Origin: Escherichia coli | Lineage (GTDB): Bacteria > Pseudomonadota > Gammaproteobacteria > Enterobacterales > Enterobacteriaceae | Direction: 5' to 3' (one strand) | Assembly (NCBI RefSeq): GCF_003334335.1 | Contig: NZ_QOWQ01000054.1 | DNA: 19,275 nt | Part shown: positions 3,441 through 18,934 of the stretch, in pieces | Layout of the letters: each line of letters opens with the position of its first letter | Numbering within the stretch: position 1 is the stretch's first letter | Program-made: the position numbers and the translations under genes | The notes under the pieces: model-generated | Database searches by the model: none | What the model was told of the DNA's origin: nothing | The model's input: only the letters and a program-made list of their open reading frames with translations

Positions 3441-4760
3441 TTACGTGTCCAGTAAATATCCCGGGGTTTCCTCCTTCATGTTGTGCTGGCGATGGAGCGC
3501 AGTACTGCTGACGCTGTCATGCCATAAGCGGGTATAGAGGCCGCCTGCAGATAACAGCTGTTCGTGGGTTCCGTATTCCGCAAGTAACCCCTTATCAATA
3601 ACGGCAATCAGATCGCAGCGTTGCGCGGTGGTCAGACGATGTGCAACAATCAGCGCCGAGTGCTTCCCGGCATGCACGACATCTGTTAACGATGACATCA
3701 GTCGTTCTTCGGATGTGCGATCCAGACATGACGTGGCTTCATCGAGCAGCAGGATGTGAGCATTCGCCAGTTGCGCGCGGGCCAGCGCAATCAACTGGCG
3801 CTGACCTGCGGACAGATCGGCTCCGCCGTTATTCACCGGTGTCCGGAATCCCTGCGGCAGATTGCACACCATCTCATACAGCCCTGCCCGCTGTGAGGCA
3901 ATTTCAACGTCTTCATTGGTGGCGGATGCCGTGAATAACGAATGTTTTCTGCAATATCACTACTAAACAGTGCTACATCCTGATCGACAAGCCCAATCTG
4001 GCGACGATACTCAGTGAGCGAGGCATCATCGAGCATTTGCACACCGATTCTGATGTTGCCGTGCGTGGGGAAATACAACCCGGCAATCAGCTTAATCAGC
4101 GTCGACTTACCCGCACCGCTGCGACCGACGACCGCGACAACCATTCCCTCAGGGATCGTCAGGGTAAGTTTGTTCAGAGTTGGCTCGTGACTGGCGGGAT
4201 AACTGAACGTGACCTCATCAAGATGCAGTGCACCGGTGACGGGGAGGAGCGAAGAGGACCCGAGGTCCTCAGTGCCTTCTGTCGCCAGTAGTTCATCAAT
4301 ATGTTTGCCGCTGGCTGTCGCCTGCTGCCAGGCGTTGACAATCCTTGATAACTGCTGCCAATCCTCGATCGAATAGAGCGGAATACGCAGTTGCGCGGAA
4401 GCGCTCCGATAACGCGCGCAGCGGGACGCCCTCCAGTTCCTGCTGATTATGCGATTGCACGACGCGCAGGCCGGAGACTTTCTCCTGCAGGGTGCTTGTT
4501 GACTTTGCCCGTGCCTGTGCATAAGAAGGGGTACTGAGGCGGCGATAAATCATGGTTGCCATTGCGGCCACTGGCACTGTGCTTAATGCCGTCAGCGCCA
4601 GGAACGGGTCGAGCCAGAACATGGTGGCGGCGATTGCGAACATTGTCACCAGACTGGTGGCCGCACCGGTAAGGCCGTTTTGCAGAAAGCGGGCGAGAGA
4701 GTCTACATCCCCATTTACCGTCTTATATCACTGGTGCCGGCAGACAGGAGTTTCATGAAA
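3441..4760 (-). pseudogene. iroC: iroC (ABC exporter) remnant: only the C-terminal transmembrane/ATPase part, with at least two frameshifts; N-terminal part and iroB absent
   Basis: Three overlapping minus-strand ORFs (4296..4649, 3833..4522, 3441..3872) in different frames together give ABC-exporter features: a membrane helix region (FAIAATMFWLDPFLALTAL), Walker A GRSGAGKST, signature LSAGQRQ, Walker B ILLLDEATS. One shift maps to about 3935..3945 (...IAENIRY in one frame, ...ATNEDVEIASQRAGLYEM in the next). Homology stops near 4730..4760, far short of a full-length iroC of roughly 1200 codons (size from memory). Confidence 0.8.
4715..4734. repeat. 20-bp sequence TTACCGTCTTATATCACTGG; exact inverted copy at 18915..18934
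   Basis: Direct comparison: 4715..4734 equals the reverse complement of 18915..18934 (20/20). Lies at the 5' truncation point of the iroC remnant. Confidence 0.9.
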
Positions 4761-5175
4761 CAATAACCCGAAATCACCAGTGTCGTTCAATGTGGCAACT
4801 GTTGGAAAAGGTTCGTCACTTTATGGTTACCGTCAGCCTATTCCCCGGTGGAATGCATGGGCTAGCTAAAGTGTAGCAGTATTAGGATCTGTTATTTAGA
4901 TTCGCAGGTGGGGGAGTTGGTAACGGATAATTCTACCGTAGTTAAACACAATCCGATAAATAAATAGCCCTATTGAGTTGTGGGTGGATGTAGTGATAAT
5001 TGATGGATAAAAATATTATTTTTTTTGATACTGATACCTTAATGGTTAATGAACTAAATGGAATAATCTTAGTGTGTTGCTTTTTTATCTGACGTTAATT
5101 CCGCACTTGCTTATTATACACAGAAAACATGGCGATAGTTTGCTAGGGTTATTTTGAGGAAAGTAAAGTATAATT
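4761..5175 (+). promoter_or_regulatory. AT-rich non-coding region upstream of the fimbrial operon; probable promoter/regulatory region
   Basis: No ORF of 60 aa or more; strongly AT-rich with T-runs; immediately upstream of the chaperone gene. No specific -35/-10 or activator site could be assigned with confidence. Confidence 0.4.
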
Positions 5176-5943
5176 ATGAAATGTATGAAATGGATGTGGA
5201 TTGTGTCATCAAAAATACTTTTATCCCTTAGTTTTTTTTCATTTGCAAATGAACAAGTGTTTGGAAATGTTGAAAACAATTCAAAGGTATTTTCTTTGCG
5301 TTTAGATACAACCCGTGTTGTCTATAACCAAGGTTCGTCTGGAGAAACATTGGCCGTCATTAATGAGCATGATTATCCGATATTAGTTCAGGCAGAGGTG
5401 CTGCTTGAAGACCAAAGAACTCCAGCGCCTTTTGTAATAACGCCACCACTGTTTCGGCTTGATGCTCTACAATCTAGTCGTCTTCGTATTATTCAAACTG
5501 GAGGTGATTTCCCGACAGATCGTGAAACTCTACAGTGGGTTTGTATAAAGGGGATTCCGCCGAAAGTTGATGATAAGTGGGCTGAGGAAAATAGTAAGAA
5601 TAAAGATGGTACAGATAAAGTAGCTCTGGACATACAAGTTTCTGTTAAAAGTTGCATTAAATTATTTGTCCGTCCGAAAATGGTGAAAGGTCATCCAGAT
5701 GACGTTGCCGAAAATGTAAAATGGCAGAAGGTTGGTAATAGGTTGAAAGGAGTAAACCCAACACCATTCTATATAAATCTCGCGGAATTGAAAGTGGGCG
5801 AAAAAGAAATACTGGAGCGTCATTATATAGCGCCATTTGGCTCTTATGAATATCCTATCGATATGAATTGGAAGGGGGGGGTTACATGGAGAATAGTGAC
5901 TGATTATGGTGGGATCAGTAACCAATTTGAAGCAAAGCTTTAA
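5176..5943 (+). CDS. periplasmic pilus chaperone (PapD-like), Afa/Dr-AAF type
   Basis: 255-aa ORF with N-terminal signal peptide (...LLSLSFFSFA/NEQ); chaperone motifs TTRVVY..., YPILVQAEV, PPLFRLDA, LRIIQTGGDFPTDRETLQWVCIKGIPP, NPTPFYINLA resemble the AfaB/AggD chaperone family as I recall it. First gene of a chaperone-usher-subunit-subunit operon. Confidence 0.85.
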   Translation: MKCMKWMWIVSSKILLSLSFFSFANEQVFGNVENNSKVFSLRLDTTRVVYNQGSSGETLAVINEHDYPILVQAEVLLEDQRTPAPFVITPPLFRLDALQSSRLRIIQTGGDFPTDRETLQWVCIKGIPPKVDDKWAEENSKNKDGTDKVALDIQVSVKSCIKLFVRPKMVKGHPDDVAENVKWQKVGNRLKGVNPTPFYINLAELKVGEKEILERHYIAPFGSYEYPIDMNWKGGVTWRIVTDYGGISNQFEAKL

Positions 5944-5973
5944 GCTTGATGAATTTTTTTTGTGAATAAAATT

Positions 5974-17533: not shown

Positions 17534-17881
17534 AAGCCTTTATAAGCCCTTTTTGAGAGAGCCGGCTTCACAACGGTGTAACTGTCGATGGCAATTTGGA
17601 TGTAACAAGACAAGGTTAAATATGTGAAATACTTATTCCTGATCCAGCGTTTACCTTTCTTTGGATGGCGTCTCACACACCATTGCCACACTTTTAACCA
17701 TATCTGGTGATCAATATAGCAGAACATTTTCTTTGCTAATACATGACGATGATAATTCACCCATCCCCGAATGACGGGATTTAGCTGGGATATCAGTAAC
17801 CATGCAGGCGATGCTTTGTTCTTCTCTATAATTGATCTTATCTTGTGAAGAAAGTTTTTCAGATTCATCCTTGAGGGTTTG
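17459..17881 (-). mobile_element. group II intron remnant (intron A): 3' portion with maturase (domain X) coding fragment, domain V and domain VI; 5' part cut off by the IS481-family element
   Basis: Minus-strand ORF 17419..17868 contains the maturase motif LNPVIRGWVNYHRHV...WQWCVRRHPKKGKRWIRNKYF. Downstream on the minus strand, 17533..17500 reads GAGCGGTGTACCGGGAAACCGGTATGCACCGTTC, a canonical 34-nt domain V (AGC triad, 2-nt bulge, GAAA tetraloop). It is followed by a stem (GGGCAG/CTGTCC) with a bulged A seven nt before a predicted 3' end ...TCCGAC at 17459. Confidence 0.7.
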
Positions 17882-18907
17882 ATGTGTGTGATTCATAGAC
17901 ATCGTTTCACTATAATACCTCACTATGAACAGGGAAATTGAGCCGCGGCTACAGTGGGTAAAACTCTATGAAACGTCCGGTGATGTAGGATTTGTATGCC
18001 GTCGCTGTGGCATTTCTCGGCCCACATTGCGTAAATGGTGGCGCAGATATCTGGCTCAGGGCATCGCTGGTATGGAAAGCCACAGCCGTCGCCCCAAGCG
18101 TTCACCATCAACGAAAACCGGCACTTGCGAAGTCGCTCTGATTCTGGAGTTACGTTCTCAGCGAAATCTGGGAGCAAGACGTATTCAAATCGAGTTAAAA
18201 CGACTTCATTCAATCTCACTGGCAATAGCAACAATCCACAAAGTCCTTTGCCAGAATCAGGTTAAACCTGTTGTTAAATTTCGGCTTAAAGCTGATTTCA
18301 TTCGCTACGAACGCCCTGTTCCCGGTGATCGGGTTCAGATGGATACCTGTAAAATTGGCCCCGGCTTAAATCAGTACACATCTGCTGATGATTGCACTCG
18401 CTACAGAGTCCTGAGGCTCTACTCTCGTCGCATGGCGGCAAACACACTGGATTTTATTGATTGTGTTATTGAAGAAATGCCTTTCCCGATACAGCGCTTT
18501 CAGACAGACCGGGGAAGAGAATTTTTTGCCGTTAAAGTGCAGGAAAGATTAAAAGAATACGGCATCAAGTTTCGTCCAAATAAGCCAGCGTCGCCTCATC
18601 TTAACGGAAAGGTTGAACGTTCCCAAAAGACAGACAAAGCTGAGTTTTACGCTACCGTAGATCTTTCTGCTGATGACCTGAAGGAACTGCTGGCAGAATG
18701 GCAGCATTACTATAACTGGGAACGTCCTCATAGCGCTCACAACGGTAAAACTCCGATGGAACGCTACTTTGAACTTGCTGAGAAAGCACCATACTCTGAT
18801 GCCGTTCATGCAAACTATCAGCCCAATGAAGAGCATATACAGGAACAGAATTACAAGCTTGAACTTGGACTGAGAAAATTGAAACGATGTCTATGAATCA
18901 TACAAAT
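17882..18907 (+). mobile_element. IS481-family insertion sequence, apparently intact (about 1.03 kb)
   Basis: Terminal inverted repeats ATGTGTGTGATTCATAGACATCGTTTC (17882..17908) and its near-perfect inverted copy (18881..18907) bracket a single 323-aa transposase ORF. The left end abuts the truncated intron A maturase frame. Confidence 0.75.
17925..18896 (+). CDS. IS481-family DDE transposase (N-terminal helix-turn-helix plus integrase-core domain)
   Basis: 323-aa ORF; N-terminal HTH region (FVCRRCGISRPTLRKWWRRY), integrase-core motifs (...RFQTDRGREF..., ...WQHYYNWERPHSAHNGKTPME...); ORF end overlaps the right inverted repeat. Confidence 0.85.
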   Translation: MNREIEPRLQWVKLYETSGDVGFVCRRCGISRPTLRKWWRRYLAQGIAGMESHSRRPKRSPSTKTGTCEVALILELRSQRNLGARRIQIELKRLHSISLAIATIHKVLCQNQVKPVVKFRLKADFIRYERPVPGDRVQMDTCKIGPGLNQYTSADDCTRYRVLRLYSRRMAANTLDFIDCVIEEMPFPIQRFQTDRGREFFAVKVQERLKEYGIKFRPNKPASPHLNGKVERSQKTDKAEFYATVDLSADDLKELLAEWQHYYNWERPHSAHNGKTPMERYFELAEKAPYSDAVHANYQPNEEHIQEQNYKLELGLRKLKRCL

Positions 18908-18914
18908 GTCAGCG

Positions 18915-18934
18915 CCAGTGATATAAGACGGTAA
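18915..18934. repeat. inverted copy of the 20-bp sequence found at 4715..4734
   Basis: CCAGTGATATAAGACGGTAA is the exact reverse complement of 4715..4734; located 7 bp from the right end of the IS481-family element and 40 bp upstream of intron B domain V. Confidence 0.9.

Follow-up and report, generated by a model that had tools for sequence, protein, structure and literature searches.

Introduction

Insertion sequences (IS) of the IS21 family end in terminal inverted repeats (TIRs) of about 55 bp, each composed of two direct repeats, L1 and L2 at the left end and R1 and R2 at the right end (PMC10122671). Each repeat consists of two GC-rich boxes with about 10 AT-rich bp between them, arranged as CS1, spacer and CS2 in IS5376 (PMC10122671). 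The outer repeat is bound by catalytic IstA subunits and the inner repeat by structural subunits, and both repeats of each IS5376 end are needed for integration in vitro (PMC10122671). The left TIR has a -10 box and the right TIR a -35 box (PMC10122671). The subject of this report is a 19,275-nucleotide stretch of Escherichia coli DNA (contig NZ_QOWQ01000054.1 of assembly GCF_003334335.1; "the window" denotes this whole stretch). The window contains a 20-bp sequence, TTACCGTCTTATATCACTGG, at 4715–4734 on the plus strand and, as the exact reverse complement, at 18915–18934. Both copies of this 20-mer, designated here A and B, are very probably remnants of the ends of IS21-type elements that inserted on two separate occasions, with the 14-kb block between them bracketed only incidentally.

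The 20-mer is identical to nt 9–28 of the left end of the IS21 prototype (2131 bp, with istA and istB), whereas the copies in the window lack istA and istB and also lack L2 and R2. Like the repeats of IS5376, the L1 of IS21 consists of two GC-rich boxes with about 10 AT-rich bp between them (GCGCC-AGTGATATAA-GACGG), and we infer from this analogy that the boxes correspond to CS1 and CS2. IS5376 makes target duplications of 5 bp, in contrast to 4 bp for the IS21 elements described here. Solo IS ends and IS debris occur in pathogenicity islands; copy A is likewise a truncated end among IS630, IS3-family and iro remnants and shows no notable difference from them. The finding is real but ordinary, namely two IS21-derived end relics. 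A possible IS21 miniature inverted-repeat transposable element (MITE) and its association with an IS3-family element are a mildly novel by-product.

Results and Discussion

Identity of the inverted repeat

A first-pass annotation of the window had reported the exact inverted pair and had considered a chance match very unlikely. Both points hold. The 20-mer has no further match in the window even when 3 mismatches are allowed, and 200 dinucleotide-preserving shuffles yielded no 20-mer match at all. The enclosed interval is 14,164 bp, consistent with the approximately 14 kb initially given. The flanks had been described as diverging on both sides, which is correct except on one side, where a repeat finder extended the pair by 8 bp (4715–4742 against 18907–18934, identical at 25 of 28 positions). 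The extended 28-nt pair reaches the inverted repeat of an IS481-family element.

The source of the repeat was revealed by short-query BLAST of the two orphan segments that hold A and B, which matched 3968 and 3182 of 5426 complete E. coli genomes, with as many as 24 places in a single genome. These matches include one large class that stops precisely at the 20-mer's inner edge and another that begins there. In annotated examples ("IS21-like element IS21 family"), matches of the first class come just before istA and those of the second just after istB. A full element (L002, 3000–5130) is 2131 bp long, starts with TGTCAGCG followed by the 20-mer and ends in ...AATAACGGTCAAACATCGTGGCGTTGACA; the 20-mer is nt 9–28 of its left terminal repeat, L1. 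Full 2131-bp copies with istA and istB were found at L002 and L003. Copies labelled IS21 by the Prokaryotic Genome Annotation Pipeline (PGAP) encode an IstA of 390 aa and an IstB of 265 aa and have TG...CA termini. Within the full element, about 50 bp of the left end can be aligned with the right end, and three full-length copies are flanked by 4-bp target duplications (ACGG, CAAG and GCGA).

BLAST of the full element against the window matched nt 1–28 to 18907–18934 (100%), nt 2105–2131 to 18932–18958 (100%) and nt 6–28 to 4737–4715 (95.7%), and found no other IS21 sequence in the window, istA and istB included. Measured from the TG...CA termini of elements that bear istA and istB, identity is 28/28 plus 27/27 for B (against L002) and 25/28 for A, in which the TG is kept. 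Both copies lack istA, istB and the second repeat (L2 and R2, about nt 29–52 of each end) and are non-autonomous relics. The suggestion that the 20-mers might be ends of an unrecognised mobile element was therefore half right: both are IS21-type termini, but they are two left ends of two separate elements and not the ends of one element enclosing 14 kb.

In a scan across species, with one genome per species, the exact 20-mer was also found in Yersinia pestis, Kosakonia, Yokenella, Trabulsiella, Prodigiosinella and some contigs of metagenome-assembled genomes (MAGs). In every case it is set 8 bp in from a TGT(C/T)AGCG terminus, and the outside flank varies from case to case; downstream is an istA leader, a fused right end or a junction of the type seen in A. 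The first-pass annotation had reasoned that the 20-mer's position would be incidental if it proved to be a common internal iroC or intron sequence in many unrelated contexts. It is indeed common in many unrelated contexts, as an IS21 end and not as part of iroC or an intron. Megablast against plasmids placed neither copy in iroC or intron sequence proper. Even with 4 substitutions allowed, the 20-mer has no match in intact iroC, in the intact intron, in the IS630-like element or in a free IS3-family copy. Three other assignments were rejected. An origin as native iroC sequence, which the first-pass annotation had proposed to check, fails on its absence from the intact gene. An origin in domain IV of a native intron fails since the intact introns L032 and L033 do not contain it and their homology begins only at 18959–18961. 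The 28-mer is also not a terminal repeat of the adjoining IS630-like element, since the fragment present is the 3' end of that IS, with its own right end at about 4899, and a full Klebsiella copy is without the 20-mer. The 20- to 28-bp L1 signature of IS21 is a useful flag for orphan junctions in E. coli islands and plasmids, where PGAP leaves such relics unannotated.

Copy B is a 52-bp mini-IS21

The features at copy B are as follows.

17883–18904, plus strand: IS481-family element with inverted repeats; boundaries from other copies; NCBIfam IS481 transposase, 255 bits (cut-off 224)
18903–18906, plus strand: left target duplication CAAA, read from the sequence, straddling the last bases of the IS481-family element
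18907–18958, plus strand: copy B, a mini-IS21 of 52 bp, L1 (18907–18934) fused to R1 (18932/18935–18958) at a shared TAA
18959–18962, plus strand: right target duplication CAAA, running on into intron B sequence
18961–19049, plus strand: 3' end (domains V–VI) of group II intron B, Rfam RF00029, 50.8 bits; 93% identity to the intact introns L032 and L033; within an IS66-family fragment

Copy B reads TGTCAGCGCCAGTGATATAAGACGGTAA joined to CGGTCAAACATCGTGGCGTTGACA, that is, the outermost left repeat joined to the outermost right repeat. It comprises the first 28 bp of IS21 and the last 24–27 bp, both 100% identical to the full copy, and fills the approximately 52 orphan bases between the end of the IS481-family element and the start of intron homology (18959–18961). 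Its target consisted of the right end of the IS481-family element and the adjoining intron sequence, and intact introns read ...CATC(A/G)AATGAGTGA at the site of the right CAAA. The distances in the first-pass annotation need small adjustments. The 20-mer had been placed 7 bp from the right end of IS481, which depends on whether that end is set at 18904/18905 by comparison with other copies or at 18907 by the inverted repeat. It had also been placed 40 bp upstream of domain V, whereas the Rfam match to domains V/VI begins at 18972, 37 bp past the 20-mer.

As DNA, 18907–18958 folds into an imperfect hairpin (-10.3 kcal/mol, z = -2.9). The right end of B carries a consensus -35 sequence (TTGACA) facing outward and L1 contains TATAAG, the halves of the known IS21 junction promoter. 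By eye, no obvious partner -10 was seen downstream of the -35 of copy B.

The 52-bp unit at other sites

The exact internal junction of copy B is present on 19 metagenome contigs, and a scan of viral contigs for the same junction gave 0 matches. The identical 52-mer occurs in four flanking contexts (metagenome contigs including L036/L039, L040/L042 and L041/L046).

Context 1, the window's own context: CAAA on both sides
Context 2, a RelE/ParE toxin gene on plasmids: CCTG on both sides
Context 3, a third site: TATC and AATC (3 of 4 positions)
Context 4, a rearranged junction with an internal istA fragment of another IS21-family element: no duplication

The second context was found, as an exact match, on three plasmids among the E. 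coli genomes, all occupied. A distant-mode search of the plasmid collection recovered the CCTG site uninterrupted, with a single CCTG, in the related plasmids L054 and L055, which are only 84–88% identical. Diverged units (78–94%) with the same architecture, 28 bp of left end joined to 24 bp of right end (L28/R24), are present at L004, L008, L009 and L010, and in Prodigiosinella (L017). Two of these, at about 3001–3052 of L004 (O157:H7) and at 1501–1550 of L009 (a strain with a pap island), are about 83% identical to the IS21 ends. They lie next to a common flank near a helix-turn-helix regulator gene, in opposite orientation relative to that flank.

On these sequence comparisons, the 52-bp unit looks like a mobile MITE, and the evidence favours movement of the unit over repeated identical deletions. 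Copy B resembles MITEs in being short and non-coding, in having the termini of a parent IS and a target duplication, and in being identical in several contexts. It differs from them in its unusual shortness and in having only one predicted transposase-binding repeat per end; as a MITE it would be one of the shortest known. No description of a 52-bp IS21 miniature element was found in the searchable literature, using sequence strings and IS21 together with miniature inverted-repeat.

For copy B alone, the competing explanation is that a full-length IS21 inserted and its interior was lost in situ, such that the 52-bp unit never moved as such. This is a tentative explanation to which we give a minority, though appreciable, probability. 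Copy B is 100% identical to the ends of current full-length IS21, and its internal junction shows TAA microhomology. IS5376 IstA needs two repeats per end in vitro (PMC10122671), and the mini-element has neither L2 nor R2. Loss in situ would nevertheless have to account for the identical 52 bp with the identical junction in four contexts, with two perfect 4-bp duplications (CAAA and CCTG) and one matching at 3 of 4 positions. It would also have to account for a homologous uninterrupted site with a single CCTG for the second context, and for diverged L28/R24 units at further loci and in Prodigiosinella. Independent repeats of the same 2079-bp deletion are less parsimonious than movement of the unit.

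We give an even chance to the more specific proposal that the 52-bp L1 plus R1 unit is a currently mobile MITE, served in trans by IstA and IstB without the second repeat, and that its L28/R24 centre acts as a landing site or vehicle for an IS3-family element. If the 52-bp unit does move, it is a natural minimal IS21 substrate smaller than the in vitro requirement.

Copy A and the truncation of iroC

The features around copy A are as follows.

3441–4709, minus strand: 3' remnant of iroC (pseudogene); homology to intact iroC (L006) stops at 4709
4706–4714, minus strand: left-end remnant of an IS3-family element, (A)TGGG(GATG); 4710–4714 is IS3 only, 4706–4709 (GATG) is common to iroC
4715–4742, minus strand: copy A, a solo L1 (28 bp) of an IS21-type element or mini-IS21, reading TGCCGGCACCAGTGATATAAGACGGTAA; 20-mer at 4715–4734
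4743–4899, plus strand: last approximately 155 bp of an IS630-like (ISSpu2-family) element, transposase 3' end plus IS right end; 91% identity to L001 2501–2655

Copy A occupies the orphan of 33–35 bp between the end of iroC homology (4709) and the IS630-like match (4745–4899). Its terminus (TG) at 4742 faces right and is directly abutted by the IS630-like fragment. On the minus strand, the order is ...IS630, TGCCGGCACCAGTGATATAAGACGGTAA, ATGGG(GATG), iroC. The first-pass annotation had located this copy where iroC homology ends, which is accurate to within a few bases: the homology ends 5 bp before the 20-mer. The 5' end of iroC, about 2.25 kb, is deleted, and PGAP annotates the gene as frameshifted with its N-terminus missing. 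Intact iroC continues past 4709 with unrelated sequence and reads ...GATGTGGACTCTC there.

The few bases between L1 and iroC come from a recurring junction. An L1 as in copy A is found with other outside flanks at L005, L011, L012, L030 and L031. The junction of L1 to ATGGGGATGCGGACG... is common to copy A, L005 and L030; the extension ATGGGGATG follows the same L1, with different outside flanks, at L005, L011, L012, L030, L014, L024 and L028; and loci whose outside flanks are different also have copy A's junction to (A)TGGGGATG. The interior at L011 was at one stage taken for a distinct MITE of 146 bp. This was revised when a search with the longer L011 version identified the interior as the left end of an IS3-family element, whose orfA starts MFTEEEKIRAIELYFKYG. 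At L031 (3501–5160), the 28-bp L1 is followed by an intact IS3-family element (inverted repeats TGGGGATGCGGACG.../...CGTCCGCATCCCCA) and then by R1 (AACGGTTAAAAATCGTGGCGTTGACA), such that the IS3-family element sits exactly at the L28/R24 junction of a mini-IS21. Because L031 shows the complete arrangement, copy A can be read as the left half of a mini-IS21::IS3 unit.

In all, the junction of L1 to the IS3-family element is found with at least 8 different outside flanks, with 0–2 additional A's where the two meet. The IS3-family element also occurs free of a mini-IS21, in Nissle 1917 (L029). The recurring junction could be due to a target preference for the centre of the mini-element or to hitch-hiking. 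A preferred IS3 landing site or vehicle at the L28/R24 centre would account for the junction that copy A has in common with at least 8 other loci.

The fusion to iroC contains GATG, which is common to both parents (intact iroC, GATGTGGAC; IS3 end, GATGCGGAC). This sharing indicates a probable microhomology-mediated deletion at the fusion of copy A and iroC. The truncation of iroC is thus explained at single-base level by a deletion that ends in nested IS debris.

Copy A has 3 substitutions relative to the 28-bp L1, all in the outer 8 bp (TGCCGGCA at 4735–4742, compared with the canonical TGTCAGCG), and the inner 20 bp are identical. A MAG contig (L016) with the same iroC junction has the outer bases TGCCAGCA, and L031 has TTGCCAGCG. 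These variants of the tip suggest a distinct sub-lineage or graded decay.

Significance of the bracketed block

The L1 termini at 4742 (copy A, facing right) and 18907 (copy B, facing left) both point to the block, so 4743–18906 is exterior to both elements. The partner end of copy B is only 52 bp away, at 18958, and the direct CAAA pair around it indicates a simple insertion. Two relics of a very common IS are unremarkable in an island rich in IS debris, and their inverted orientation is a coin toss.

The window is part of a chromosomal island that 39 complete E. coli genomes, NCTC86 among them, carry in collinear form at no less than 99% identity. The junction at copy A is present in 53 genomes and that at copy B in 37–41. 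Megablast of the bracketed interval against the 72,556 plasmids of PLSDB gave no match outside the IS481-family element, which lies just past the fimbrial and aat genes. Two kinds of variant carry one copy only. In about a dozen genomes (L034 type), copy A is kept and the aat genes and copy B are absent, and variant H222 has copy B without copy A. The variant breakpoints lie in the IS481 and IS3 copies, near 11464 and 12064 of the window, and not at the 20-mers.

The inverted pair had prompted the idea of a footprint of a past recombination or inversion, for example by replicative intramolecular transposition or by recombination between inverted repeats. The copies are in fact inverted, and the region does contain rearrangement scars, among them an IS481-family element between two opposite intron 3' parts without a duplication. 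Yet 4743–18906 was neither inverted nor relocated in any genome examined, including the related genomes in which an inverted segment had been proposed as a check, and the island is collinear in every carrier. Copy B has both of its own ends, and its direct CAAA repeats fit a simple insertion and not the product of an inversion. A repeat of 20–28 bp is very short for homologous recombination, and the structural variation that does occur is located at the IS481 and IS3 copies. An origin of the pair in inversion or recombination is therefore extremely improbable.

The copies could also be viewed as the inner ends of a decayed composite transposon, in which two inverted IS21-type elements moved the block into the chromosome beside iro. 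The geometry (R...L, cargo, L...R, with both L termini adjoining the cargo) fits such a structure, the cargo is bounded by IS debris, and IstA accepts non-canonical pairs of ends in vitro (PMC10122671). We regard this origin as very unlikely. With CAAA on both sides and a right flank that runs into intron B, copy B is a simple insertion, since unused as an outer end. Outward-facing ends enclosing a cargo are not present, copy A being without an outer end and the relics without L2; each relic keeps L1 only, whereas two repeats per end were needed in vitro (PMC10122671). Copies A and B differ at 3 of the 8 terminal bases. Finally, the block has no second location, being on no PLSDB plasmid (megablast) and in a single chromosomal context in 39 genomes. 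Neither a cryptic transposon nor an inversion scar thus marks the limits of the block of fimbrial and aat genes.

Some observations weigh against two independent IS21 relics as the source of the pair. The 3 positions at which A and B differ all belong to the outer 8 bp (hypergeometric P ~0.02 under an even spread), and this clustering hints at constraint or conversion. The other end of copy A is lost, leaving no duplication that would prove an independent insertion. No empty site for copy B was found in the collection, where all 41 genomes with the junction carry the insert. In addition, IS5376 IstA can use two left ends in vitro, making an L–L pair chemically possible (PMC10122671).

Proposed history

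We infer the following events, the two insertions being independent of each other. A mini-IS21 composed of L1 and R1, without genes, would have inserted at the junction of the IS481-family right end and intron B with duplication of CAAA, giving copy B. Another such element, with an IS3-family element at its centre, may have inserted into the IS630-like element as the precursor of copy A. A later deletion, with ends 5–9 bp inside the IS3-family element and inside iroC (at GATG), would have truncated iroC. Along with about 2.25 kb of iroC, this deletion would have taken out iroB, R1, the remainder of the IS3-family element and the 5' part of the IS630-like element. By analogy with IS5376, the 20-mer would be most of the predicted outer IstA-binding site, a role that would account for its being conserved better than any other part of the relics.

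Neighbouring rearrangements and gene content

On either side of the IS481-family element at 17883–18904 is the 3' part of a group II intron; the two introns are different and oppositely oriented, with domain V at 17535–17459 (minus strand) and 18972–19049 (plus strand). No target duplication is present around this element, and the left intron part has no blastn match to the Shigella-type intron. The segment 17459–19049 is a rearrangement junction that is independent of the 20-mers.

The IS debris of the window comprises two IS481 copies, two IS66 copies, an IS3 and two intron fragments. PGAP annotation of a 99.4%-identical genome (L007) gives iroN, iroE, iroD and iroC pseudogenes, an IS630 fragment, a chaperone-usher operon with an AfaD-family gene, and a small open reading frame (ORF). 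These are followed by a partial IS481, an IS66 fragment, five aat-like genes, an intron maturase fragment, an IS481, an IS66 fragment and an IS3. The annotation agrees with the fimbrial operon and aat operon that had been placed within the bracket. The gene called dispersin is a 115-aa ORF without a match to any Pfam or NCBIfam family; it is presumed to resemble dispersin (Aap). The block of fimbrial genes, 115-aa ORF and aat-like genes (4900–17400) is chromosomal in about 40–53 complete E. coli genomes, including NCTC86.

The 273-aa ORF at 10710–11531 (minus strand) is not an AggR-type regulator but encodes part of an IS481-family transposase; next to it is a fragment of IS66 tnpC (together 10710–12303). 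The partial IS481 is inverted relative to the full copy at 17883–18904, and the deletion variants break here (11464 and 12064). The AraC-family gene of the island lies outside the window, at 36185–36982 of L007.

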